Shown here piece by piece: positions 2,733-61,161 of a DNA stretch of 64,000 nt (the first letter of the stretch is position 1; each line of letters opens with the position of its first letter). The DNA is from a bacterium. Lineage in GTDB: Bacteria > Patescibacteriota > Microgenomatia > UBA1406 > GWC2-37-13. A program made the position numbers and the translations under genes. The stretch covers positions 112,241 to 176,240 of the forward strand of contig JAKQDR010000172.1 of assembly GCA_029573715.1 (NCBI GenBank). The letters are read 5' to 3'. The notes beneath the pieces are model-generated. The model was not told the origin of the DNA. It did not search any database and saw only the letters and a program-made list of their open reading frames with translations.

Positions 2733-5629
2733 AAAAGTACATGCACCATATTGTCGCACTAGCGATTTTGACGAGCATCGCAGTCTTTGTGCTCACTCGT
2801 AATTATGTGCCAGGCACCACGATTGCCGGATGGGATGATTTGCATCCAGAATTTGATTTCGGCCTCGCATTATCGCGGACTTTTGAAGGTGTGTGGCGTG
2901 CCGATCAGGGGTTGGGCACTGTTGCAGGGCACTCGCATATGGTAGAGATGCCGCGCATCGTGGTCTTGTGGTTGATATCACATTTTGTACCTACAGAGCA
3001 GGTGCGGTTTGCATTTGTTGCATTGAGCATGCTTTTTGGCGTGTGGGGCATGTACGCATTTGTGTACTATATTTCAAGATACTTTGGCACCCATCTCCCA
3101 CACCATCTCACTTATACCCGTTCGGCAGTTGCCGTTATAGCGAGTCTCATATATATGCTCCACATCGGAGTAATACAGCAATTCATATTGCCGTTTGAGA
3201 TGTTTATGGTGCAGTTTGCTTTGACGCCATGGCTCATGCTGGGAGCATTGAGTTATGTTACATCAAGAAACACAATACATCTTCTCATTTTTGCATGTAT
3301 CACATTTTTCTATTCCTCTACTGCATATGCCGCTACTTTGTGGTATGTCTTTTTTGGAATGTTTCTACTTTGGGCTTTTGGGTATGTGCGCAAACGCACT
3401 ATCCGTCCTTTTCTCATATTGTTTATAGTATTTCTTGCGATGAATCTGTATTGGCTGGGTCCTAATATCTACTTTGCAATGCAAAGAGGTCATGAAGTGC
3501 AAACATCAAAAATTAACACCATCTTTTCACCGGATATATTTGCGGCTAACAAGCAGTTTGGAAATCCTGCGGACGCACTTCTTTTGAAAGGGTTTCTCTT
3601 TGATTGGAAAGTGTATGATCATCAGTCGCAGGAACATGTGCAGATCATGCAAGCATGGCGTGACCATCTACAAAACCCATGGGTTCGTACTCTATCTTAT
3701 ACTCTGTCACTTATTGCTCTGCTGGGTATTATTCTCTCATTAGTATTGCGCAATCGTATTGTAGCTTCATTTGCAGTGTTCTTCCTAGTGCCGCTAATGA
3801 TGCTTCTTAATGGAATGTGGCCCATAAGTGGTTGGTATGAAACGCTCTCTCACCATATTCCTCTTGCTAAAGAAGCACTCAGGACACCATTTACCAAGGT
3901 ATCTATTCCCGCTGTGTTTGGCATCGCACTCTTTTTTGCGTATGTGCTTTCTTTTATCTGTCGTTTAAGCAAATGGATGCGATGTGGTTTACTCGTTCTC
4001 TTTGCCATAGCTATACTGTGGGTGGGATGTCCGGCTTTTTACGGCGGATACATTCATAAATCTGTGCAGATACGTATACCTATAGAATACAAAGATGTAT
4101 TTACCTATTTCAGAAGTCAACCACCTCATGCCCGTGTGGCCTTGTTTCCGCTGCATACGTTTTGGAATTGGACACACTATGCATGGGGATACCAGGGAGC
4201 AGGGTTTCTACAGTTTGGGATACCCCAACCAATACTCGACAGAGATTATGACAGATGGAGCAAATACAATGAACAATACAATCGAGAGATGTCGTATGCG
4301 CTGTATGCTCAAAACTCCCTCATATTAGCCCATACGCTCAATAAATATAATGTTGATTACATACTCGTTGACACTAGTGTTTTTGAGCCTTCCCTCCCTT
4401 CTCAACACAGTTTGCTTCATTGGCTTATGCCAGAATATATTGCACAGACACAACTGTTTGAGGAGCCAGTGCAGTTTGGGGACCATATCTTGATATACAA
4501 ACGGCGTATGCAATTATCTCCGCAAGTATCACTCGTGCCAGACGCGATTGAGTTTGCTGCATCAACAGCACAAAGCCCGATGGACGCTCAGTATATTTCT
4601 GTAGGTAACTACTATACAAATGTATCTCATGACACTACCGATAGTACACAAAGTCAAATAGAACGCTCACCCAATTACGTAAATAGCGAATGGCGTGCAG
4701 ATTTCTCACGGGATAATTGGGGCATATGTGCCGAGGTGCATGATGGTCAGTCAAAAAGAGTGCGTGAAAACAATAGAGTATTGTACGAGGCATATGATAC
4801 TAATCTATGTGAAACCGTAGAATTTATAGAAGTAGATCATGCAAAGGCATATGAGCTCTCCATTACTCATGAGAATCTGGAGGGCCGACCTATCATGATT
4901 TGTCTAAAAAATTTGCTCACCGGGCATTGTGACGTAAATGAGCAGCTAACGTCAGGGTCACAAAAGCGCACAGATCGCTTTGCTGTGCAACCTCTTTGGG
5001 ATTATGGGTTCGGATATCAGCTTGAGCTGACCACCATCGCGAGAGGGCGAGGAGTAAGTCGCAACAATCTATATGATGTTGTTTTGCGTGAAGTAGAAAA
5101 AGAAATAGTGATAAGAGATGTTTCAGACAACAATATACAAATTGAATATGAGGATACATCACGGTATTGGAAAGAAGTCAAGGTTCAAACTAATATGAAA
5201 AAATTAGAACCTCAGCTACTTGTTCTCAACCAAGCCTACTCACCGGGGTGGATAGGGCTTTCGGTTCAAAGTTTAAAGTTCAAGGTTCATGGATTTGAGA
5301 TGTACTTACCAACATTAGTATTACTCCCCCATGTGAAGGTGAATGGGTGGGCGAACGGTTGGTCAATCGATAGTACAGAGTACAAAGTACAGGGTACAGA
5401 GCACAAAGAACTCAGCGCTCAGCACCCCGCTGAGATTTCAAAGAGCAAGAAGCAATCTAATCTAAGCACCATGAACCATGCGCCAAGCACCAAGAGCTAT
5501 GCACCAAGCACAAAAGTTCTCCTCCTCTTCTGGCCTCAATATTTGCAGTATGTGGGGTTTGGAATACTCTTGTTGACAATGGGCGTGCTTATCGGAATAC
5601 GCACAGTTAACCTAATAAAGGTCAGATAA
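2729..5629 (+). CDS. large (966 aa) polytopic membrane protein, probable GT-C type glycosyltransferase (AftD/DUF3367-like N-terminus) with extracytoplasmic C-terminal domain and C-terminal TM anchor
   Basis: Long ORF translationally coupled to the upstream GT39-like gene. The N-terminal half has more than 10 hydrophobic segments. The N-terminus GWDDLHPEFDF...W..DQGLG resembles AftD-like proteins by eye only. Confidence 0.5.
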   Translation: MKKYMHHIVALAILTSIAVFVLTRNYVPGTTIAGWDDLHPEFDFGLALSRTFEGVWRADQGLGTVAGHSHMVEMPRIVVLWLISHFVPTEQVRFAFVALSMLFGVWGMYAFVYYISRYFGTHLPHHLTYTRSAVAVIASLIYMLHIGVIQQFILPFEMFMVQFALTPWLMLGALSYVTSRNTIHLLIFACITFFYSSTAYAATLWYVFFGMFLLWAFGYVRKRTIRPFLILFIVFLAMNLYWLGPNIYFAMQRGHEVQTSKINTIFSPDIFAANKQFGNPADALLLKGFLFDWKVYDHQSQEHVQIMQAWRDHLQNPWVRTLSYTLSLIALLGIILSLVLRNRIVASFAVFFLVPLMMLLNGMWPISGWYETLSHHIPLAKEALRTPFTKVSIPAVFGIALFFAYVLSFICRLSKWMRCGLLVLFAIAILWVGCPAFYGGYIHKSVQIRIPIEYKDVFTYFRSQPPHARVALFPLHTFWNWTHYAWGYQGAGFLQFGIPQPILDRDYDRWSKYNEQYNREMSYALYAQNSLILAHTLNKYNVDYILVDTSVFEPSLPSQHSLLHWLMPEYIAQTQLFEEPVQFGDHILIYKRRMQLSPQVSLVPDAIEFAASTAQSPMDAQYISVGNYYTNVSHDTTDSTQSQIERSPNYVNSEWRADFSRDNWGICAEVHDGQSKRVRENNRVLYEAYDTNLCETVEFIEVDHAKAYELSITHENLEGRPIMICLKNLLTGHCDVNEQLTSGSQKRTDRFAVQPLWDYGFGYQLELTTIARGRGVSRNNLYDVVLREVEKEIVIRDVSDNNIQIEYEDTSRYWKEVKVQTNMKKLEPQLLVLNQAYSPGWIGLSVQSLKFKVHGFEMYLPTLVLLPHVKVNGWANGWSIDSTEYKVQGTEHKELSAQHPAEISKSKKQSNLSTMNHAPSTKSYAPSTKVLLLFWPQYLQYVGFGILLLTMGVLIGIRTVNLIKVR

Positions 5630-5643
5630 ACAGCAGATTGCAC

Positions 5644-6630
5644 TCACTTTACCACACGGTCCCTTCCATTTTTATAACGTATACAGTGTAATAGTTCATT
5701 CACTAAGGCGGCGAAATGCTGTTCATAGTTTTTACCCGTCCCACTGGAGGAGTGTTTTTTAAAAGGGATTACTTTTTTCACCTGTATGATGCGCTTTTGA
5801 TAGTTTTCCCCTGGAGCAATTGTGGGGTCAACCTCAAGTGACAAAGTACACACAATATCTCCTTCTTCACTAAGTTCCATTCGGTAGATGGCGCCTGGGT
5901 TATCATTCGGTGTATATGCCACTTCAATATACGGATTGCAGCATTCTGCAGTTTCTAAGATTTGATGAATCGTCGCAGGGTCATGTAGTCCATTCATTCT
6001 GCTCAGTGCAATGCTCGCTTCTTGCTTTGATGCGCCGTCTAGTTCTACAAGTGGTGCACCAGATGGTCTTTCATATTGAATATTTCGTTGAGGGGCGAGT
6101 CTCAGCGTGCACCTATCATTTGGTGGAAAATGAGATGATGGGTTTAGAGGTCGAAGCTCCAATTCATATACAACAGGGAATTTGTATGTGGCACCATATA
6201 CAAGCTCTTCACCGTCGGGGGAATGTTTATATGCACGAGGATTTGAGTTGATGAGTCGTTCTTCGGGGAGAATATTCATGGCACCTAGTTCACCTTTCTG
6301 ACTGCTCCCTGCTGGATTACCTAGTTGAAAAGTACCTTCTATTATATGTATGAGTTTTGACACGGCAGGCGAAAATAATATTTCTGTAATGCCTCGATCG
6401 ATATGAGGCGCGGTGTTATGCAGGGCGAGTGTGGTTTCAAGTGCCAAGGCCTGAGTGATCATTCGGTGCCACTGAGACCGTTGAGGTTCGGACAAGAATG
6501 GAAAGAGGTCAGGGGTTGTTTCAACTTTACAAGGTCCTTCTGGAGCGGGGAAGTCTACCAGTGGGAGTAGCATATCCGGTCGACGGGACAGCATAGGTTC
6601 AAAAGGGAGATTTTGTTCCGAAGGCGTCAT
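5644..6630 (-). CDS. hypothetical protein (328 aa), no motif recognised
   Basis: Long ORF convergent with 2729..5629. Amino-acid composition looks ordinary. The function is unknown. Confidence 0.6.
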   Translation of the reverse strand: MTPSEQNLPFEPMLSRRPDMLLPLVDFPAPEGPCKVETTPDLFPFLSEPQRSQWHRMITQALALETTLALHNTAPHIDRGITEILFSPAVSKLIHIIEGTFQLGNPAGSSQKGELGAMNILPEERLINSNPRAYKHSPDGEELVYGATYKFPVVYELELRPLNPSSHFPPNDRCTLRLAPQRNIQYERPSGAPLVELDGASKQEASIALSRMNGLHDPATIHQILETAECCNPYIEVAYTPNDNPGAIYRMELSEEGDIVCTLSLEVDPTIAPGENYQKRIIQVKKVIPFKKHSSSGTGKNYEQHFAALVNELLHCIRYKNGRDRVVK

Positions 6631-6798
6631 GGATGTATTGATTTTGTAACGATATTAAGATACCAGGGTATAGGGTAAATTACAAACCAAGGCAGTACAT
6701 ATAGCATAGGCTACGTCACACACTTCAAATGCTATAGACGAGGTGCGACACTCATATTCTGAGACATCTGTACCATGATACAACTAAACCTATAGTAC

Positions 6799-6827
6799 TT
6801 GACAAGGGGTTTTAAATCTGGTAATAT
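6799..6827 (+). promoter_or_regulatory. sigma70-like promoter candidate: TTGACA - 17 nt - TAATAT
   Basis: TTGACA at 6799-6804 and TAATAT at 6822-6827, read directly. It lies in a long AT-rich spacer, and the first downstream plus-strand CDS starts at 7530. Confidence 0.4.
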
Positions 6828-7225
6828 GAACCTGTTCAAACATCCCAAACGGACACGTCTGGAGGTTTTTATACCCTAGAAATGTTCGGGATGAAAGGAC
6901 AAAATCGCCCCACGTCGCATAAAGCTATGCGGGGCAAGCACCTTAACAAATCGCTTTGTAAGTAGTGGAGAGACAGAGGATATTCTCATTTCATCGTTAT
7001 GTTTCGAGCGTAGTCGAGAAATCGATGAGCACGAGATATAACACCATAGGTTCATCATACCAATCACGCTTTGCATGTGAACGATATGCTGCCCTATAAC
7101 ATATGAGGATATTCACTCAACTCTCCTCTACCATACAATTTTGCATGATAGATTTTAATTTAGTTAGTATAAGTGAATCCTCCAACAGGATTTGAGAAAG
7201 AATCGAAAGCGCCACGCCACAAAGC

Positions 7226-7352
7226 TTTTTTTGGTGGAAATAAGGATCAAAAATATCAAGTTCAATGTTCATAGTTCAAAGTTCATGGATAAAACCATGC
7301 ACCACGAACCATGCACTATGAACCATACTTTGGTTTTTGTTCCCACCAAAAG
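7226..7352. repeat. long imperfect hairpin built from two opposed heptamer arrays, at the left border of GC island 2
   Basis: The outer arms are CTTTTTTTGGTGGAA (7225-7239) and GTTCCCACCAAAAG (7339-7352). The inner arms are CAAGTTC AATGTTC ATAGTTC AAAGTTC (7257-7284) and CACCACG AACCATG CACTATG AACCATA (7300-7327). Confidence 0.7.
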
Positions 7353-7516
7353 GGCTCGCAGGCCGGCGCAGTGCGCACGACCCCCCCTGGCCAACCGGCC
7401 GGAGCCCAAGCCAAAAATGCCTTCAGTATTTCGGAAGGCACAAGTGCGCGGGCTTAGGTGGCCGCGCGACTCGATTTCTTCAACCGCCGGCCTTAAAAAC
7501 CGGCACACTTCCGTAC

Positions 7517-7521
7517 GGAGG
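7517..7521 (+). promoter_or_regulatory. Shine-Dalgarno GGAGG 8 nt upstream of ATG 7530
   Basis: The sequence is cGGAGGaaagtttcATG. Most native start codons I inspected in this window lack such a motif. Confidence 0.6.
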
Positions 7522-7529
7522 AAAGTTTC

Positions 7530-8546
7530 ATGAACGCGTTCTCGAAGTGGATCCGCCGGGTCTTCCAAACCCGGCCTCTGGCCCTGGCCTTGGTGGTATC
7601 GACCGCCCTGGCCGTCGTGTTCGTCTCGCTCATTGCCGTGGCACCCGCCGCGGCCCAGAACCCCGCCTGCAGCGACCAGATCGTCGGCACCAGGCTGACC
7701 TTACCTGCCATGACGGCAGGACAGGAGGCCGTGGTGCCTTCTGGCCTCTTGAATGGAGCAACCGCACTGTGCGTCGAAGGTATGGAAGCGGCTGAGAGCA
7801 TTGCCTTGAAGTTGAAGGGTACGAACCCTTACACAGCCGAAGGCAACTCAACCGCCCTGACCGTGGACGCCGAGTTTGCTACCAACTTGGCTCTCTCCGA
7901 CCCGTCGTTCAACGGCAGCCTGCTCAAGGCTGCTCCTGGTTTGCCGGCCGTGACGATTATCGCCTTGAGCGACCTGACCGAGGGCGTCACCGTCTGGGTG
8001 GGTAACCCCCGCCCCACGGTGATCGCGAATGTCAAAATCGACCAATGGCAGGACATCAAGATCCCGGGCAACATTTCCGAGCTCGCCGCCGGAACCACGA
8101 AGTGGTCCGGCAACGGAGTCTTGATCGTCATCACGTCTGGTGCGGCCTTTGCGGCCAACGGCACGGCCGTGCTCCCTGAGCCGACGAAGGTCGGCAGATA
8201 CGAGTTCTACGTCGACAGCGCAACTCAGTTGGTGCTGGCGGGCACGGTGCCCGGCCAGCGGTTCTACCTGAGCGTCGACGCTGACACGGTGACCGCTGAC
8301 TCGTGGCTTCAGCGGCGGGTCGAACCCACCACTGCCACCACTACCGGCGCGGCGGCCTCCACGGCAGGCGCCCAGTACACTGATCTCGGCGGCGCGTGCT
8401 TTAGCGCCGCCACCTGTTCGGCCGCCCAGGCCGTCGCCTGCGTCTCGGGGGCTCCCAAGCTCCCGTGCACGCCCGGCGACTCGATCGAGGTCTGGGGGGC
8501 CCCTGCCCCCATGACCTTGTGGGAGGCCTTGCAGCTCGTGAAGTAG
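7530..8546 (+). CDS. secreted protein of unknown function (338 aa), GC-rich foreign-looking gene
   Basis: The N-terminus KWIRRVFQTRPLALALVVSTALAVVFVSLIAVAPAAAQ looks like a signal peptide or anchor. A Thr/Ala-rich linker (EPTTATTTGAAAST) is followed by a Cys-rich tail. A strong SD precedes it. Long ORFs on both strands here are typical of high-GC DNA. Confidence 0.75.
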   Translation: MNAFSKWIRRVFQTRPLALALVVSTALAVVFVSLIAVAPAAAQNPACSDQIVGTRLTLPAMTAGQEAVVPSGLLNGATALCVEGMEAAESIALKLKGTNPYTAEGNSTALTVDAEFATNLALSDPSFNGSLLKAAPGLPAVTIIALSDLTEGVTVWVGNPRPTVIANVKIDQWQDIKIPGNISELAAGTTKWSGNGVLIVITSGAAFAANGTAVLPEPTKVGRYEFYVDSATQLVLAGTVPGQRFYLSVDADTVTADSWLQRRVEPTTATTTGAAASTAGAQYTDLGGACFSAATCSAAQAVACVSGAPKLPCTPGDSIEVWGAPAPMTLWEALQLVK

Positions 8547-8994: not shown

Positions 8995-11900
8995 ATGGTA
9001 GAAGCACATGTGGCACGAATGCCACGATCACCATTCCAGATGCGACCGATAGAAAACCCTTTTCGAAGGGTTCTCCCTGCTGTGGTACAAATGCGTGATC
9101 GGGTTGCAGCCGGTGTGCGGGACGTGGGTAATTCGCTTGCCCAGCGAATGCAACGTTCACAAGCGCAGGATGTATCTCGCCTTGCACAGGCGCGCGCGAC
9201 AATCGCTCAATCTGTAGATGCCACTCGTACGTATGTCAACCGTGACAACGCGCGTATGGCCGTACAAATTGGTACACAAGCGGCCCGAGAAGCGACCCAT
9301 TATGTCGCGACTCACAAGATGGAAATAGCCAAAAAAGTTGCACCATCGCTCGCAATAAGTATTACTGCCAAAGTGGCTGGTGCAGCGCTTGCAGCCCCTG
9401 TCATTGTGGCAGGTGCGGTGGCAGGTGGCGCCAATGAAGCACGCCGAAATGTCAGCACGTTAAACGCTACAAAAGCAGATGGAATATTTGCCACATCTGC
9501 AGTACTGCGCAATGGGTTTGAAAGAAATACAGCAAGGGCACAAGCTGGTACACAAGATAACGCTAACTTTTCTTCAACAGAGGGAACATCGGTATTACAG
9601 CGTATCGCCCAATCCAAAGTGGGCCGTGGAATGCGCGCCTACATGCGTGCTGAGAAGTCAGCTGCATCATATGTCGCGTCGCACAATGCACATATCGATC
9701 GCGTCATGGACTTTGCCCCCGATGCAACTGCCCGAGCAAACGCGAGCATTGATATTGACTATCTCAATAGACTCAGGACGGATGCCGCTATGGCACGCAT
9801 GACCGCCACGACAGATGTGGAGCGGGCGGCCGCGCGTACAGTGCACCAGGCAGTACGTGAGCGCATGCGAACGCTTGAGTCTGCGGCAGGTCTTGATTCT
9901 GCGATACCATATATAAATGGTGTTGCGGAACGTCAGATACTTCGTGCCCAAAGGAGCGTACAGTTTGACAAGTCATATAAAAATATTGTCATTGGAAGCA
10001 TTGTTGCATCCTCCGGGGTGCGGGCAGTGAAGTCTGCACTCTCATCGGCAGCGATATTTTTGGGACTTTCGGCGGTAGGGGTCGATGCGGCAAGCCCTCT
10101 GCGCAGTTTGAAAGACACCATGTGGAGAGATGTTTCTGATGGAGTTGGGAATCTGGCCAAATCAGCTGGTTCATATATGGAAAATGCCATTACTCATATT
10201 CTCACAAACACAACTCCCTCAGCAGAAGCGGCAGAAATTACAGTTCCGACTATGCACGATGTGATAAATACCGTGCAAAATACTGCCCATGCAGTTTTCC
10301 AGGATCAACGAAATCAAAAACGTATAGAGGGGAGTTCCTTTAGACCCAATACTATGTCAGATTCATCCGTGCATGTGGGGGATAATCAATACTTTGACCC
10401 CCGCCTCACCACAACAGTACGGGTAGAAAATGGCGAAACAATTATTGAAGGAAAGGGAGTGCTTTCATCTGGTTATCCAAAAGCTGTTGACTCTTCTTAC
10501 GCTGCAGCTCCTCGAGATCCTTCGTTCGTGCGTGGTCCTGTGGCAGATCGTGTGGCCATTGCTCAAGAAGTGAATGCCCCTGTACCTATGCGAGAGGTTG
10601 CGCGGACCGTGCAAGAAGTACAAGAATATACTATTGAAGGTAAAGTGTCATGGACTCAAGATATCTTTGATCGAAAACTCCTTTCAGGCATGCAGGATGC
10701 TGCCCACTCTATGGATTGGTATGGTGCTCCCGGCACTGCAGAGCGCATGGTGAAGGAAGTATTCGCAATAAATTCAGACATTATGGATGCTGATGATATG
10801 CAGAAGATGCAAGAGTATCTTGCCGCACACCCAGACGCATCTTTCGTGCAAATGTGGAAAGATTTGCAACACACGGTATTTTCAGACGATATGGACAAGC
10901 TCACTGATGGAACGGCATACAAAGTGCTCTCGGAGCACACCGTCATGGTGCAAGAACCGGCCGAGTCTGTGGCAGATGCTCATGAGGCAGATGCACTCGT
11001 GATGGGTGCCAGCCGTGCTTCCAAACCTCCGGGGCTTGCCAAATATGTGTTGAACATCGACCAACAAGCAGCGCCTCCAACTTCTATACAATCATCTGGA
11101 ACAAATACTTCAGGGTATCAAGTGGTTAGGCCACCTCAAAGTACAGGAGTTACCAGTGGGGCAAATACAATACAAGGCACATATCAGCAAGTTGCTCCCC
11201 CAGGCGGAAATACTGCAGCCAACGGTACGGTGAATGGTTTTCAACAAGTAAGAAAACCAGGTGAGGTTTTATCGAATAGCGTAACAACAAATGCTCAGGT
11301 GGTTTCATCTCCACAAAATAGCATTGTGCCACCACCCCATCAAATGGGATCTCCAGATACCGGCAGCTCAGTATCAAATACAATGCATGGTTATCAACAA
11401 GTTGCTCCTCCCGGTGCAAATAGTGTAATTAATAACAGTTCTATGGTTGGGACATATCAAGAAGTTGGTCAGCCATCAGCCCCCAGGCCTGTCGTAGTAG
11501 CGCGCTCAAACAATGAGACCTTTCAAATAGTAAGCCCCCCAAAACCACAAGAGGATGTGAGCTTCCAAGTGGTATCACTGCCAAGAGCAGTGTTACCATA
11601 TGAAGTGTCACGTGACACGCAGCTCGCGAGTATTGTTGGCCCCTTTGATTTGAGTAGCGGAAACAATCATGTGGCTTCTATTCAGTCAACAAGTTCTTAT
11701 TTCCCCGCATCAGCTTCTATGCCGATATCTATGTACAGCGATAGAGCACCAGCTATTGGGGGAGGCGCTTATGAATACAATGCACTGGGCGGAACAAATA
11801 TATGGACCCATACCAGCTCATTTAAAGAAGGAGGAAAACAGTGGTTGGAAGACGCCCGAAGATATATGCAGGGGGGGAATGGTCAACCTCGGCTTGGACC

Positions 11901-12628: not shown

Positions 12629-12756
12629 TTGTGTCACAATTCTTGTGACGATAGCCTTGACCGGCATGTCTTTTTCCTTGGATCGTACTTGTGGCGCCTT
12701 ATAAGCAAGCACCAAAAATACGTTTAGCGACTTTCTTCACTAAAAAGAAAAAAAGA

Positions 12757-14572
<1,816 letters not shown>

Positions 14573-14792
14573 GAAATTGCAGGAATACTCTTTTCATTGC
14601 TGAAAAGGTACCTACAGCTCAATTGCTAGGCTTGCTCGCCTCAATGTGCTTAAAGCACTTTGGGCGAGATGTGTGTGCATTCGGGCATCATACGACGCCC
14701 GAAATAATTTCCTCGATTTATCAATGTGCGGGACACTATTTTACTAGATACGAGACTCAAATACAATGGGCATAGCCTCGGGTGATCAGGAG

Positions 14793-32007: not shown

Positions 32008-32081
32008 GCGCCTGTAGCTTAATTGGATAGAGCGTCAGTCTTCGGAACTGAAGGTTGCAGGTTCAAGTCCTGCCAGGCGCA
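32008..32081 (+). tRNA. tRNA-Arg(UCG), CCA not encoded
   Basis: GCGCCTGTAGCTTAATTGGATAGAGCGTCAGTCTTCGGAACTGAAGGTTGCAGGTTCAAGTCCTGCCAGGCGCA folds as a canonical cloverleaf. Confidence 0.9.
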
Positions 32082-32112
32082 CAAGTGGATATACGCATCG
32101 AATCCGTGTCAA

Positions 32113-32214
32113 GCAGGTTCCCCGCAATCGTGTGCGATATGCGGGACTAACTGTCCGTAATGCTCGAGTTTCACTCGTCGCAAACGGTCAGTTGAGCAAG
32201 TCCTGCCAGGCGCA
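32113..32214 (+). repeat. truncated second copy of the tRNA-Arg(UCG) T-arm and acceptor 3' strand, split inside the T-loop by a 76-nt two-hairpin element (32121-32196)
   Basis: GCAGGTTC (32113-32120) plus CAAGTCCTGCCAGGCGCA (32197-32214) reproduce the tRNA 3' part exactly. The insert is CCCGCAATCGTGTGCGATATGCGGGACTAACTGTCCGTAATGCTCGAGTTTCACTCGTCGCAAACGGTCAGTTGAG. Confidence 0.8.
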
Positions 32215-32264
32215 CATTGTTGTATCTTAACGATACGAAGTGAGTTTAGATACAACAGTGACAA

Positions 32265-32336
32265 GGGCTCGTAGCTCAACGGTAGAGCAGTTCCCTCTTA
32301 AGGAATTGGTTGAGAGTTCGAATCTCTCCGAGCTCA
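32265..32336 (+). tRNA. tRNA-Lys(CUU), CCA not encoded
   Basis: GGGCTCGTAGCTCAACGGTAGAGCAGTTCCCTCTTAAGGAATTGGTTGAGAGTTCGAATCTCTCCGAGCTCA folds as a canonical cloverleaf. Confidence 0.9.
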
Positions 32337-32381
32337 CAGACAGTATCAGAAACAGCAATTGCCCCCTCGATGACCCACCAT

Positions 32382-32602
32382 AGAGTTAAGAGCAGTCCGC
32401 CAGTGGGCGGATTGGTTGAGAGTTCGAATCTCTCCGGACTCACATACACCAAGGGGAGGGGTTTCCGCCAAAAGCGGACAGGTTTTGAGAGTTCTCCCGA
32501 TAGTCATTAATAGCTATCGGGACAAATCCCGCAAAGCGGGGAAATCTCTCCGGACTCACATAAACCAAGGGGAGGGGTTTCCGCCAAAGGCGGACAGGGT
32601 TT
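32382..32602 (+). repeat. array of tRNA-like 3' halves and 52-nt direct repeats downstream of tRNA-Lys
   Basis: An uninterrupted T-arm plus acceptor strand GAGAGTTCGAATCTCTCCGGACTCA ends at 32442. A second copy (32487-32558) is split after TTC by TCCCGATAGTCATTAATAGCTATCGGGACAAATCCCGCAAAGCGGGG. The repeat CGGACTCACATAMACCAAGGGGAGGGGTTTCCGCCAAARGCGGACAGGKTTT occurs at 32435-32486 and 32551-32602. Confidence 0.8.
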
Positions 32603-57026: not shown

Positions 57027-57126
57027 GCCGCGGTGGTGGAACATTCAACTCGGACTTGCCGATACGTAAGTACGGCTTAGAGCGAGTGAATCCCCTCACC
57101 ACGTGTGGTGAGTGGGGGCAGACACG
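57027..57126 (+). repeat. 5' fragment of tRNA-Leu(UAA) (acceptor 5' strand plus D-arm) split in the D-loop by a 74-nt two-hairpin element in inverted orientation (57043-57116)
   Basis: GCCGCGGTGGTGGAAC (57027-57042) plus GGCAGACACG (57117-57126) equal positions 1-26 of the intact gene at 57183. The reverse complement of the insert is CCCACTCACCACACGTGGTGAGGGGATTCACTCGCTCTAAGCCGTACTTACGTATCGGCAAGTCCGAGTTGAAT. Confidence 0.8.
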
Positions 57127-57182: not shown

Positions 57183-57266
57183 GCCGCGGTGGTGGAACGG
57201 CAGACACGCAGGACTTAAAATCCTGTTCCTGTATAAGGAGTGAGGGTTCGACCCCCTCCCGCGGCA
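57183..57266 (+). tRNA. tRNA-Leu(UAA), long variable arm, CCA not encoded
   Basis: GCCGCGGTGGTGGAACGGCAGACACGCAGGACTTAAAATCCTGTTCCTGTATAAGGAGTGAGGGTTCGACCCCCTCCCGCGGCA. Confidence 0.9.
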
Positions 57267-57335
57267 CTTGCAAAGGGATGGGGGGAGAAGTTTGTCGAAG
57301 GACAGCGAGGATGTATTAAGGCTCAAGCCCGTAAC

Positions 57336-59106: not shown

Positions 59107-59178
59107 GCCGCCTTAGCTCAGTGGTAGAGCACTCGCTTTGTAAGCGAATGGTCGCGGGTTCGAATCCGGCAGGCGGCT
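59107..59178 (+). tRNA. tRNA-Thr(UGU), CCA not encoded, one G-G mismatch in the T-stem
   Basis: GCCGCCTTAGCTCAGTGGTAGAGCACTCGCTTTGTAAGCGAATGGTCGCGGGTTCGAATCCGGCAGGCGGCT. The acceptor stem is perfect, while T-stem GCGGG/CCGGC has a central mismatch. Confidence 0.75.
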
Positions 59179-59197
59179 CATAGCTTGGAGTAACAAC

Positions 59198-59225: not shown

Positions 59226-59230
59226 CGATC

Positions 59231-59326
59231 GGGTTCCCCGCTTCGCATATTGCTTTGCGGGATAAACTGGCAGGTAATGCTCATTGCATTCGCAAACTGC
59301 CAGTTGAACGAATCCGGCAGGCGGCT
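59231..59326 (+). repeat. truncated copy of the tRNA-Thr T-arm and acceptor 3' strand, split in the T-loop by a 72-nt two-hairpin element (59237-59308)
   Basis: GGGTTC plus CGAATCCGGCAGGCGGCTCATAG reproduce the tRNA 3' end and 5 trailer nt. The insert is CCCGCTTCGCATATTGCTTTGCGGGATAAACTGGCAGGTAATGCTCATTGCATTCGCAAACTGCCAGTTGAA. Confidence 0.8.
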
Positions 59327-59336
59327 CATAGTTCAA

Positions 59337-59413: not shown

Positions 59414-60675
59414 TGAATTCAGTAAGTAGTAACAAAAAGAAGTATCTATTCTTCCCTATCGAGATCGGACTTGCCCATATTTGCCGTTCTCTCGCTGTTG
59501 CCGAGGAGCTTGTTGCGCGGGGTCACACGGTGTATTTTGCTCTCCCTAAGCGCAAATGGAAGTTGTTTTCTCATACCACCGTTACTTTAGTTTCGATTGA
59601 AAGTTATGTAGCTGCTGACGATTTCGGCATGAATGTGAAACTGTTTCGAGATCCAAAACTTATCGATCGGGTGGTATCAGAGGAATTAGCGCTCATTGAC
59701 AAGTACAATCCTGATGCAGTAATTGTTGATTTCCGTATTTCTGCTTTTGCGGCAGCTACCATACGAGGTATATGCACGTTTGCTATTTTTGTGGGCGACG
59801 GCCTCCCTTATGGTGCTCATTTGCCTAATCCCGGCCTGCCTCGATGGGCATATCGATTGTTTCGTAATGTCTTTCCAAAATTGTATGATGTGGCATCACG
59901 CTGGTACCTCAACCCGTTTATCAAATATATGCGAAATCATGGGGTACACACATCATTTGATGCGTGGATGCGTGCAGTTACCTATATCGTCCCTGAAGCG
60001 CCGTTTTATATGCCTCCTGCCTCATCAACACTCCAGGTGCATCACACAGGTACCCTCGGTTGGTATGCATTTGATAATCCAATACCCCCATGGCTTGACA
60101 AGATGTGCCCGGATGGACGCACCGTGTATGTAAGTTTTGGAGGTACCGGGTTTGATAAAAACAAACCAATCGAAATCTGCATGGCCCTTGTGAAGAAGGG
60201 TTATCGTGTAATTGTCACAACAGGATCAATTTCAAACCCGTCCGACTATCCATCACATCCCAATCTTTTTGTCACGACTTTTTTGCCAGGCAACACAATA
60301 TCTAAAAAAATTGATGTGCTTGTGTGTCATGGGGGGTATGGCACGATGATGGATGCGATTCAATGTGGGGTACCGGTTGTTGCAATTCCTTTTAATCCCG
60401 ATCAGATATTACACGCAGCACGCATGCAGGAGCTTGGGCTTGCCAAATCTCTTCTGACGCTTTCCGCCCGTGACACATATAATGCGTTTACGTTTCAATG
60501 GAAACATATTGAGGAAAAAGGCAAGCAAATACCATCAAGCACCATTGTCCAGGCAGTGGATGAGTTGATAAAGAAGAAAGATTTGTATCAAACCAATATT
60601 CGAAACTTTAACGCGAAATATCCCAGCACCAACGGCGCATCAGAAGCTGCTGATATAGTTGAAAAGGGCCGTTAG
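59413..60675 (+). CDS. GT1-family (MGT/UDP-glycosyltransferase-like) glycosyltransferase
   Basis: It has the C-terminal nucleotide-sugar signature VCHGGYGTMMDAIQCGVPVVAIPFNPDQ. Confidence 0.75.
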   Translation: MNSVSSNKKKYLFFPIEIGLAHICRSLAVAEELVARGHTVYFALPKRKWKLFSHTTVTLVSIESYVAADDFGMNVKLFRDPKLIDRVVSEELALIDKYNPDAVIVDFRISAFAAATIRGICTFAIFVGDGLPYGAHLPNPGLPRWAYRLFRNVFPKLYDVASRWYLNPFIKYMRNHGVHTSFDAWMRAVTYIVPEAPFYMPPASSTLQVHHTGTLGWYAFDNPIPPWLDKMCPDGRTVYVSFGGTGFDKNKPIEICMALVKKGYRVIVTTGSISNPSDYPSHPNLFVTTFLPGNTISKKIDVLVCHGGYGTMMDAIQCGVPVVAIPFNPDQILHAARMQELGLAKSLLTLSARDTYNAFTFQWKHIEEKGKQIPSSTIVQAVDELIKKKDLYQTNIRNFNAKYPSTNGASEAADIVEKGR

Positions 60676-60708
60676 TCCCGCGGAGTCTTGACGAACCGGG
60701 AAACCTCC
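60671..60708 (-). repeat. truncated copy (T-stem strand plus hairpin 1 plus ACTAAC) of the tRNA-Leu(GAG)-associated element, overlapping the GT1 stop codon
   Basis: The minus strand reads GGAGGTTTCCCGGTTCGTCAAGACTCCGCGGGACTAAC. Compare GGAGGTTCCCCACTTCGTCAAGACTTCGCGGGACTAAC at 61032-60995. Confidence 0.75.
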
Positions 60709-60935
60709 ACCAGCTTCCTTATTTACTATGAACACATGTGGGTGGCCCGCCACAGTTCGGGCTTTCGGCTTAGGTCGCATATCTGCGACACAAGAATCGT
60801 ATTTCTAACTATCTTGCAATAGTTAGAAACGATCTCTATGCATATTTTCGCTGCGCCTCATGCGCTCACTTATCGGCGGGCATTGATATACCTAACCTCG
60901 CCATATGTTGCTTTGCTCGCTAAGGTATATCAATG

Positions 60936-61032
60936 TGCCCGAGAGAGGATTTGCTCAACGGGCAGTATACGAATGCAATGAGTAGTACCTGCCCGTTAGT
61001 CCCGCGAAGTCTTGACGAAGTGGGGAACCTCC
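60936..61032 (-). repeat. truncated copy of the tRNA-Leu(GAG) T-arm and acceptor 3' strand, split in the T-loop by a 71-nt two-hairpin element (60954-61024)
   Basis: The minus strand reads GGAGGTTC [CCCACTTCGTCAAGACTTCGCGGGACTAACGGGCAGGTACTACTCATTGCATTCGTATACTGCCCGTTGAG] CAAATCCTCTCTCGGGCACA. Confidence 0.8.
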
Positions 61033-61079
61033 AGGTGATAAGGTAATAAAAAGTGTTGCTGCGTGACTCAGATTATATG

Positions 61080-61161
61080 TGCCCGAGAGAGGATTTGAAC
61101 CTCCACTTCTTACGAAACACGCCCCTCAAGCGTGCGCGTCTGCCAGTTCCGCCACTCGGGC
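61080..61161 (-). tRNA. tRNA-Leu(GAG), long variable arm, CCA not encoded
   Basis: The reverse complement is GCCCGAGTGGCGGAACTGGCAGACGCGCACGCTTGAGGGGCGTGTTTCGTAAGAAGTGGAGGTTCAAATCCTCTCTCGGGCA. Confidence 0.9.

Follow-up and report, generated by a model that had tools for sequence, protein, structure and literature searches.

Why should an intact tRNA gene be followed by a second copy of its own 3' end, and why should that copy be split, within its T-loop, by a folded insert? The question is raised by a tRNA-Arg(UCG) gene in a stretch of DNA from a bacterium of the Candidate Phyla Radiation (CPR), or Patescibacteria (positions 112,241 to 176,240 of contig JAKQDR010000172.1, assembly GCA_029573715.1). 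We refer to this whole stretch of 64,000 nucleotides as the window. We found that the insert belongs to a conserved family of two-hairpin sequences, most of which split a tRNA-arm loop at a fixed point. We put at about one half the probability that it is a mobile DNA element, non-autonomous and directed at loops, which can persist only where the end of a tRNA gene is redundant; this reading draws on comparison of sequences.

In what follows, E is the insert with its two hairpins, H1 and H2; S is the spacer; stub a is the copied fragment of a tRNA arm; and R is the repeated gene end. Loci fetched from other assemblies and genomes are given as L numbers. Coordinates of features are collected in Table 1.

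Hairpin-split copies of tRNA genes in the window

The window contains eight tRNA genes (ARAGORN, Rfam). At the Arg locus the intact tRNA-Arg(UCG) gene is followed by a spacer of 29-30 nt, an 8-nt stub of the T-arm, an E of 76 or 77 nt and a 20-nt R. The initial annotation, made from the sequence alone, had described an intact gene with an exact copy of its T-arm and 3' end split by 76 nt, and this is what we found, with R matching at 20 of 20 positions. The further copies that it had reported at tRNA-Thr, tRNA-Leu(GAG) and tRNA-Leu(UAA) are also where it had placed them, with exact repeats of 23, 21 and 16 nt, respectively. It had put the break between T55 and C56; relatives place E at precisely that point, and at the Arg locus itself the junction is ambiguous by one nucleotide (C56 is present on both sides). 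The tRNA-derived repeats in the window run 2-5 nt past the gene. The predicted fold of the Arg E has a z-score of -3.4, and within one 4-kb part of the window the copies of E have the orientations -, + and -.

In addition to these four copies, the window holds three relics of E as well as other pieces; among them are a second, truncated unit at Leu(GAG), a relic of H2 only near tRNA-Lys(CUU), and pieces at the Lys gene itself. The decayed Lys copy has its anticodon arm replaced by a hairpin, TCCGCCAGTGGGCGGA, just upstream of the part that is preserved. A diverged insert, E2, splits a third copy of the Lys T-loop (GAGAGTTC / insert / AATCTCTCC) in antisense, and the Lys E2 unit repeats with a 116-nt period (repeat D2).

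E is a conserved, structured family

Target-blind patterns, that is, patterns of the second hairpin only with no tRNA sequence in them, were used to find relatives of E. A scan of GTDB, with one genome per species, matched the first pattern to 26 stretches in species contigs, 24 of them in CPR/Patescibacteria metagenome-assembled genomes (MAGs) and two of them evident chance matches. The CPR carriers include Gottesmanbacteria, Roizmanbacteria and Microgenomates. A second pattern matched 20 metagenome contigs. Neither of two pattern scans of the viral contigs in IMG/VR gave a match, and carriage by phages, which the initial annotation had wanted examined, was rejected on this basis. The target-blind scans gave 42 non-identical copies of E, all in CPR/Patescibacteria contigs. 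As far as sampled, the family is restricted to these bacteria.

Some carriers (L014, L019, L020, L027, L032, L033, L035-L037 and L039) are MAGs entered as third-party annotation under the title 'uncultured Gammaproteobacteria'. Because RuvB of L027, L035 and L037 is 67-68% identical to RuvB of the window, we read these MAGs as CPR relatives; they are probably CPR genomes with a placeholder label.

The structure of E covaries. Across 30 aligned copies, 96.8% of the cells were paired and 13 of 19 pairs had changed on both sides; none of 500 shuffles and no slid register came near this, in an alignment that had been fitted to the model. A covariance model, R2, built from 36 copies in other genomes with the window excluded, recovered all four window copies at 56.5 bits (Arg), 54.7 bits (Thr), 48.3 bits (Leu-GAG) and 32.3 bits (Leu-UAA), with E values of 1e-12 to 2e-6. 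Nothing else on the full 64 kb was comparable; the only weaker matches were the H2 relic and the Lys insert. The window copies of E are not chance matches.

The consensus of H1 is Y followed by CCCRC-loop-GYGGG, variable in length and GC-clamped. On its 3' side come A-YTAAC and then the covarying lower stem of H2. H2 has the internal motifs GTAAT / GAAAC, a 3-bp covarying upper stem and a conserved apical loop, which is CTCACTTCGTATCG in most lineages; the tail is GTTGAR. Across the family E is 60-77 nt long, and in relatives it starts with T or C. Stem mismatches are 9 G-T and 11 A-C, equally frequent, and so wobble pairs gave no call on the strand that folds. In L019, 29-nt mini-units in tandem at about 7300-7390 (CCCTCGAAGCGGGATTAACTTCGTTGAAT), each made of H1 and a minimal AAC/GTT stem, immediately precede a full E.

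Searches of the window, L018 and L025 against Rfam 15, with E values up to 10, gave no match on E; the only matches were 16S rRNA and tRNA models on intact genes. A known RNA family was ruled out, there being no Rfam match at gathering or E-value thresholds on these three loci. No description of such bacterial units was found in the literature searched, an absence that holds within that literature only. The author of the initial annotation knew of no such element either, and E is an apparently undescribed, uncatalogued and widespread family.

Fixed insertion points in T-loops and D-loops

Among the 42 non-identical copies, 38 split a recognisable tRNA arm loop at a fixed point. These fall into three groups. 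Seventeen of the 38 are in a T-loop in the sense orientation, between T55 and C56 (...GGTT / Y-E / CRAnTCC...). Four are antisense in a T-loop, in 3' pieces of tRNA-Tyr (GGATT / E / CGAACC); these keep TT/CGAA on the other strand because the loop TTCGAA is palindromic, and the Lys insert of the window behaves like this type. The other 17 are antisense in a D-loop, in 5' pieces of tRNA-Leu isoacceptors (...TGC / E / CATTCC..., or G18/G19 in the tRNA sense), with one subgroup 2 nt further 5'. The 5' flank of E is GGTT in T-loops, as against TGC, GCC or CCA in D-loops. When E is taken out, its flanks join up into an intact loop, the junction being ambiguous by no more than 1 nt.

Because 21 of the 38 copies are antisense to the tRNA, and because G-T and A-C mismatches are equally common in the stems, we infer that E arises by a process at the level of DNA and not by insertion into tRNA transcripts. 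The initial annotation had proposed a family of miniature, non-coding elements in tRNA elbow loops. With 38 of 42 copies at a fixed point in a T- or D-loop and a structure that covaries, this description stands. The relation of E to the elbow loops is unusually precise and symmetric. We also considered whether the lower stem of H2 is templated by the tRNA flank. This was rejected: 6-nt matches seen at Thr and Leu(GAG) were not repeated, by eye, at other loci.

A partial copy beside an intact gene

E was never found inside a complete tRNA gene; every copy that bears E lacks the other half of the tRNA. The interrupted partial copy comprises the arm together with the acceptor strand and 0-12 nt of flanking sequence. 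An intact tRNA gene, usually for the same tRNA, is found 8-70 nt away; 3' pieces are on its downstream side and 5' pieces on its upstream side. The unit as a whole is 116 to ~160 nt long. A direct partial duplicate is present at 34 of the 102 tRNAs in the fetched CPR loci, with its inner boundary at tRNA position 55-57 or 15-19. An uninterrupted T-arm in such a partial copy was seen once in about 34, in the Lys pseudo-copy of the window.

The spacer does not look like tRNA. The initial annotation had taken the 31 nt after tRNA-Arg for a degraded D/anticodon region, and local alignment to that part of the tRNA, compared with 2000 shuffles, gave no significant similarity (p ~0.1 for Arg and 0.5-0.9 for the others). 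The associated suggestion of a 5'-truncated tandem pseudo-tRNA fared better outside the window: in L021 and L031 the interrupted copy is almost full length, with its anticodon arm replaced by a small GC hairpin.

Other small hairpin families hold the same kinds of positions in L036, L047, L048 and L076. In redundant tRNA copies the anticodon arm has given way to a small GC-rich hairpin, or the D-loop is split by one (types CCCGC...GCGGG and ...GCGGGCAGG), at window 32395-32410, L031 ~4769-4784, L021 73-100 and 497-524, L036 1381-1412 and L048 9951-9987. A CCGTAGCCTTGGCGAAGG-type hairpin is common to L047 and L048.

In some loci the E-bearing 3' piece is unlike the adjacent tRNA (L034 4139-4290, L023 3990-4155 and L035 3542-3708); for example, a piece ending AACGGCCACC follows a tRNA-Val gene. 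This suggests that mismatched pieces may be old units that have outlived a change or replacement of the neighbouring tRNA gene. Two of these loci also bear on an earlier generalisation, that tRNA genes with such companions lack an encoded CCA and those without companions encode it. The rule holds in the window, where Val, Asp and Arg-TCT encode CCA. It fails for tRNA-Val in L034 and tRNA-Leu in L035, which encode CCA yet have an E unit.

The junctions are authentic and the units occur in tandem

The glycosyltransferase and EamA genes of the window are present, with identical sequence, on independent JGI, NCBI (GCA_035343395.1), ENA and Logan contigs, and the same junctions are found there. The junctions are identical in at least seven independent assemblies, and they are also seen in many other species. 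They are not an assembly artefact, an objection that had been left standing when the units were first described.

The number of units in tandem does vary among assemblies. L008 has the 133-nt Arg unit in three copies; of the 148-nt Thr unit there are two copies in L001 and three in L002. Tandem units are also found in L028 and L048. Several contigs break inside a unit. Either the tandem copy number is polymorphic or it is beyond the resolution of short reads. The differences, from 1 to 3 copies, are at L008 8064-8540, at L001/L002 ~9600-9770 and at the starts of contigs L009, L012 and L013, and the repeated units fragment short-read assemblies of the window organism. Four other assemblies of the same species have an extra 88 nt after tRNA-Leu(UAA) (L001 7647-7734) that is missing from the window (at 57293/57294). 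It consists of a 43-nt repeat (from T-loop A58 to +27), a 35-nt hairpin and GTCGAAGGA; that is, it is a duplication unit of a tRNA end without E.

Occupied, decayed and empty sites

Sister genomes with the same gene order were reached through homologues of RuvB. In L040 (RuvB 83% identical), tRNA-Thr abuts tRNA-Arg(UCU) with 0 nt between them, and a gene begins 4 nt after tRNA-Leu(GAG). Neither site has E or a partial copy. In L042 (RuvB 82% identical), the Thr unit persists in decayed form: its spacer measures 25 nt and its stub 11 nt, H1 is all that is left of E, and the gene end is mutated. This distal end meets tRNA-Arg at exactly the junction that the true gene end makes in L040. At Leu(UAA) in the same genome, it is the distal 5' piece that has the native promoter/leader on its upstream side.

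Because the distal piece is joined to the native flank (L042 compared with L040), the segment made up of new gene end, spacer, stub and E behaves as an insertion inside the gene, with the original end pushed outward. On these comparisons, E and the duplication are gained or lost together. Either direction of change is possible, because precise recombination between the ~20-nt repeats would restore the state seen in L040. The initial annotation had offered, as its alternative, relics of an integration system that regenerates the tRNA. The anatomy fits such regeneration, as do the empty sites without a partial copy and the distal piece on native flank. Of the empty sites that it had proposed to look for, a pseudo-tRNA without an insert, one was found in about 34; the vacant sites of L040 are of the other kind, with neither E nor partial copy.

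Copies of E within one genome can be much alike. Identity is 92% between the Leu(UAA) and Leu(GAG) copies of L042 and 81% between the Thr and Leu(GAG) copies of the window, as against only 57-79% when copies at one and the same tRNA are compared across genomes. This pattern fits spread inside a genome with turnover, or gene conversion, and it points to mobility. Truncated copies were found in the window (at Leu-GAG), at Thr in L042, and in L017 and L022.

Small GIY-YIG genes adjoin tRNA genes in relatives

The initial annotation reported no integrase or transposase in the window and suggested looking elsewhere for a linked protein. We likewise found no integrase, transposase, reverse transcriptase or free GIY-YIG domain among the called genes of the window, several of which have no Pfam match at all, and a tblastn search for the GIY-YIG open reading frame (ORF) described below showed it to be absent from the window. 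TnpA/RAYT proteins (Y1 HUH) were found neither in the 64 kb nor in the fetched loci. A candidate for a linked protein did appear in relatives, in or beside such units: an ORF of 66-98 aa that matches PF01541 (GIY-YIG) with E values of 1e-15 to 1e-19.

In L021 (Lys), L048 (Gly) and L076 (Leu-GAG) this ORF separates the intact tRNA from the interrupted 3' piece, and in L042 (Leu-GAG) and L075 (Ser) it separates interrupted 5' pieces from the intact tRNA. In L040 it adjoins a tRNA, and a 44-nt stretch of the tRNA leader is directly repeated on its two sides. In L031 it is between tRNA-Phe and tRNA-Gly, and an E unit follows the Gly gene. Beyond the distal piece, L021 and L076 retain a remnant of the start of the ORF. 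All six GIY-YIG ORFs in 435 kb of CPR loci are 1-74 nt from a tRNA, and only 12.3% of the bases are within 300 nt of one. Often the ORFs are embedded in a mosaic of GC hairpins and tRNA fragments. Among solved structures the closest are two UPF0213 proteins, BH0048 and EF2693, while I-TevI and SLX1 match distantly; in NCBIfam the sole match, to group I intron endonucleases, fell below threshold. The displaced piece of L048 and L076 contains another hairpin as its insert, not E. The GIY-YIG genes are a lead as a possible driver of E units.

Table 1. Positions of tRNA genes, units and pieces of units in the window, and of GIY-YIG ORFs in related loci.
Feature	Locus	Position	Strand	Support
tRNA-Arg(UCG), intact, no encoded CCA	window	32008-32082	+	ARAGORN; Rfam tRNA 74.1 bits
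Spacer S of Arg unit	window	32084-32112	+	shuffle test against rest of tRNA, p ~0.1
Arg stub a, GCAGGTTC: copy of T-stem 5' strand and T54-T55(-C56)	window	32113-32120	+	sequence reading
Arg E, CCCGC...GTTGAG: H1, linker ACTAAC, long H2, tail GTTGAG; splits copied T-loop at T55/C56	window	32121-32196	+	R2 56.5 bits, E 1e-12
Arg R, CAAGTCCTGCCAGGCGCACA: 20/20 copy of 32064-32083, C56 to discriminator plus 2 nt	window	32197-32216	+	repeat D7
H2-only relic of E, 38 nt, with family-consensus loop CTCACTTCGTATCG	window	32219-32256	-	R2 18.1 bits, E 0.012
tRNA-Lys(CUU), intact	window	32265-32337	+	ARAGORN, Rfam
Part of decayed tRNA-Lys copy: variable loop, uninterrupted T-arm, altered acceptor 3' strand	window	32411-32448	+	repeat D4, 92%
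E2, diverged short E-like two-hairpin insert (R2 match 32491-32540)	window	32495-32542	-	R2 15.6 bits, E 0.055; repeat D2
Leu(UAA) R, D-type: exact copy of tRNA nt 1-16, upstream of gene	window	57027-57042	+	repeat D8, 16 nt
Leu(UAA) E, opposite to tRNA; splits copied D-loop at G18/G19, boundary +/-2 nt	window	57043-57116	-	R2 32.3 bits, E 2e-6
Leu(UAA) stub, GGCAGACACG: copy of D-loop 3' part and D-stem 3' strand	window	57117-57126	+	sequence reading
tRNA-Leu(UAA), intact	window	57183-57267	+	ARAGORN, Rfam
tRNA-Thr(UGU), intact	window	59107-59179	+	ARAGORN, Rfam
Thr stub, CGGGTTC	window	59230-59236	+	sequence reading
Thr E, in copied T-loop	window	59237-59308	+	R2 54.7 bits
Thr R: exact 23-nt copy of tRNA-Thr 3' end plus CATAG	window	59309-59331	+	repeat D5
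Second, truncated Leu(GAG) unit: stub TGGAGGTTT, H1, ACTAAC; ends at 3' end of glycosyltransferase gene	window	60669-60709	-	repeat D3, 90%
Leu(GAG) R: exact 21-nt copy of tRNA 3' end plus CAT	window	60933-60953	-	repeat D6
Leu(GAG) E, in copied T-loop	window	60954-61024	-	R2 48.3 bits
Leu(GAG) stub, TGGAGGTTC	window	61025-61033	-	sequence reading
tRNA-Leu(GAG), intact	window	61079-61161	-	ARAGORN, Rfam
GIY-YIG ORF	L021	230-469
GIY-YIG ORFs	L031	4396-4638, 7565-7786
GIY-YIG ORF	L040	11122-11415
GIY-YIG ORF	L042	17512-17742
GIY-YIG ORF	L048	10199-10453
GIY-YIG ORF	L075	284-580
GIY-YIG ORF	L076	2001-2264

Comparison with known systems

We compared E and its units with known families of mobile and structured elements. 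E fails at least one defining feature of each known family tested. Integrative elements that target tRNA genes are similar in that they insert inside the tRNA gene and regenerate it, leaving the displaced end as a direct repeat that begins in or near the T-loop (for repeats here, see D5-D8 in Table 1), and in that tandem repeats of the gene end can build up. Unlike these elements, the units here are 116-157 nt long and non-coding, with no tyrosine or serine integrase found nearby; their displaced arm is always split by a hairpin, and 5' pieces split in the D-loop are as frequent as 3' pieces.

Fungal mitochondrial endonuclease genes bring a replacement gene end and displace the original one. 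Fungal mitochondrial GIY-YIG and LAGLIDADG ORFs with duplicated gene ends have been described (PMC7315562). Free-standing homing endonuclease genes, of which SegB of phage T4 is an example (PMC2330249), also resemble the loci L021, L048, L076, L042 and L075 in having a GIY-YIG gene beside or inside a conserved gene with a duplicated end. They differ from what we found in that the nuclease here is a catalytic domain of the UPF0213 type, 80-98 aa in length, most units have no ORF, and there is no counterpart of E.

REP/BIME sequences and the PATEs derived from IS200/IS605 are, like E, short and non-coding, with one or two hairpins; they lack terminal inverted repeats and do not themselves duplicate the target. 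These elements are active on single-stranded DNA and depend for their movement on HUH Y1 transposases supplied in trans. The ends of E also agree with such elements, with H1 at the 5' end and H2 near the 3' end. In contrast to REP/PATE elements, E has no constant 4-5-nt target and no uniform strand bias, and its target is the loop of a tRNA arm. The IS200/IS605 reading was rejected: there is no constant target, no strand bias and no TnpA in the window or fetched loci. Targeting of GTTC like that of IS91 was also rejected, as relatives show GGTT/T..., a cut before C56 and not after GTTC.

E resembles integron attC sites in H2, an imperfect hairpin with the base ...AAC / GTT..., and at the 3' end, where GTTGAGC, GTTGAAC or GTTGAAT fits GTTRRRY. 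The 5' side of E, (G)AYTAAC, fits the R'' motif RYYYAAC in part only. In contrast to attC, the tRNA flank resumes after GTTGAR and not at a G/TT junction; there is no integron integrase or cassette among the annotated genes of the window and related loci; and E has an extra hairpin, H1, and a tRNA context. The attC reading was therefore rejected on the misplaced junction and the missing integrase, in spite of the GTTRRRY-like tail.

Mobile archaeal tRNA introns at non-canonical positions, as in Thermoproteales, are related short inserts at T- and D-loop positions of many tRNAs in one genome. These introns lie in complete, functional genes, in the sense orientation, and form a bulge-helix-bulge that is cut by the splicing endonuclease, whereas E is found only in truncated copies, on either strand, and in bacteria. 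We also considered an RNA-guide system with E as scaffold and R as guide, like the omega RNA of TnpB. E is too short for this and has no overlapping nuclease gene, and the exact match of R is no evidence for a guide because it follows trivially from insertion.

Possible explanations

In the reading that we favour, E inserts into the arm loops of tRNA genes, at a single fixed point in each. It is seen only in redundant end-pieces because an insertion at that point would destroy a working tRNA. The whole unit would act as an insertion inside the gene that regenerates the gene and displaces its original end outward, and the ~20-nt repeat would let the unit amplify in tandem or be lost precisely. 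E would be moved in trans by an enzyme encoded outside the window. The duplication could arise by either of two routes. A partial tandem duplication or unequal sister exchange might rescue an otherwise lethal hit, or E might travel in a cassette that carries its own replacement gene end.

Several points weigh against this. No enzyme is known to act on E, and no transposase, integrase or reverse transcriptase gene was found in the window or in ~0.5 Mb of related loci. No single sequence rule spans the T-loop and D-loop targets. Uninterrupted partial copies are almost absent, though they would be expected if E colonises pre-existing duplicates, and none of the compared loci caught an insertion event in the act. 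The sample leans to copies that keep the H2 motif. The order ruvB, E unit, tRNA-Leu(UAA) is met again in genomes with RuvB identity as low as 67%; either the site beside ruvB has been re-invaded or the unit is long-lived. This recurrence, and the conservation of the loop and motifs across genera, would also fit a function selected in the host. Finally, more than 85% of units have no GIY-YIG gene (about 5 of about 50 units hold the ORF), and the link to GIY-YIG genes may be a parallel phenomenon in which a nuclease gene merely favours the flanks of tRNA genes.

Those genes are central to one alternative, in which the unit is a homing-type cassette made of a replacement tRNA end, a GIY-YIG gene, an arm stub and E as its end-piece. 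The nuclease would break the tRNA gene in naive genomes, and repair would copy the cassette by way of the tRNA homology arms; E would interrupt the displaced arm and so prevent it from being cut again or recombining away. On this view, loss of the nuclease gene from such cassettes would have left the short units of the window. The ORF does lie between the intact tRNA and the displaced pieces in L021, L048, L076, L042 and L075, the GIY-YIG ORFs strictly adjoin tRNA genes, and remnants of the ORF start follow the distal piece in L021 and L076. The 44-nt leader repeat around the L040 ORF fits as well, and there is precedent in T4 SegB, a GIY-YIG homing endonuclease in a tRNA gene cluster (PMC2330249). 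We nevertheless consider this explanation unlikely. The ORF is missing from most units, and in L048 and L076 the insert is not E. The proteins of 66-98 aa consist of a catalytic domain only, with no DNA-binding domain, and UPF0213 is not known to have homing activity. The carrier's own intact tRNA would be a target unless the recognition site includes native flank, and stub a has no role.

That E is instead a module selected in the host seems quite unlikely. E with its closing arm stem would then be a structured RNA from tRNA leaders or trailers, or a DNA or RNA signal that acts in cis on tRNA genes (terminator, processing signal or protein-binding insulator), with the tRNA flanks kept alike by gene conversion. 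Loop and motif sequences kept across genera, covarying stems, stable folds and a ruvB-side position kept at 67-83% RuvB identity are what such a module would show. In addition, the closing arm stem is fully complementary in 4 of 7 old copies whose acceptor part mismatches the neighbouring tRNA. Yet E lies on either strand relative to tRNA transcription (21 of 38 copies are antisense), and so no single RNA would be made. L040, a close relative in which gene order is preserved, has none of these units, and assemblies of one species differ in copy number. Truncated copies are common, and homogeneity within a genome across different tRNAs is the pattern of spreading elements; there is also no match in Rfam. 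We infer from this that E is mobile DNA and not host-selected RNA.

An intact tRNA with a direct repeat of its 3' end, beginning in or near the T-loop, is the trace that integration of the classical kind leaves. The tandem ssrA repeats of Dehalococcoides (PMC3146451) are comparable. The units might thus be attL/attR relics of integrase-mediated elements that target tRNA genes, with the body deleted and E a later passenger in attR. This we regard as improbable, given that no integrase is present in the window or related loci, that the units are only 116-157 nt long, that mirror-image 5' pieces upstream of tRNA-Leu are as common as 3' pieces, that att repeats without an insert are almost never seen, and that viral contigs gave no matches. 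Very improbable, in our view, is that the units are ordinary decaying tandem pseudo-tRNAs, or an artefact of assembly, with incidental hairpins. The nearly full-length pseudo-copies of L021 and L031, and the disagreement of short-read assemblers on copy number, could be taken that way. However, the recurrence of the junctions in at least seven independent assemblies and many species effectively refutes an artefact, E is conserved and covarying at a fixed position in the loop, and the spacer is not tRNA-like.

The reading of E as a loop-targeting mobile element can be taken further. E, perhaps together with the UPF0213 GIY-YIG proteins encoded next to tRNA genes, might represent a new class of mobile element that recognises the folded geometry of a tRNA gene, as single-stranded DNA or a cruciform, and not its sequence. 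It would insert between the nucleotides of the elbow pair (55/56 or 18/19, whichever strand folds) and regenerate the gene in the same event. We offer this extension tentatively and consider it unlikely. There is a moderate chance that the E family is something categorically new.

Other features of the window

The 16S rRNA match at 12756-14575 (- strand) is 1820 nt long, compared with 1533 nt for the model, indicating an insertion or insertions of ~290 nt. Insertions in rRNA genes are often seen in CPR bacteria. The region 6630-7530 is 900 nt without a convincing gene. It contains an H1-like GC hairpin, CCCACGTCGCATAAAGCTATGCGGGG, at 6909-6934, which scores weakly with the first model of E and has no Rfam match. 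Degenerate 51-nt tandem repeats, C- and G-rich, are present at 24-233 and are probably low-complexity sequence at the edge of the window.

Significance

tRNA genes are classic landing sites, and their known invaders are kilobase elements with an integrase. The invader here would be a unit of 116 to ~160 nt without a gene, placed with nucleotide precision in the elbow loops of tRNA and widespread in the minimal genomes of CPR bacteria, a vast and little-known branch. For work on these genomes there is a practical side: the units break short-read assemblies, and the pseudo-tRNA pieces confuse annotation. A host-selected E would add a new, conserved nucleic-acid structure to those associated with tRNA genes. 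A mobile E would reveal a new logic of target recognition, guided by structure and working on both strands, and it might provide a possible function for the orphan GIY-YIG proteins of the UPF0213/YhbQ type. Our results point to an apparent means of invading tRNA genes without killing them.

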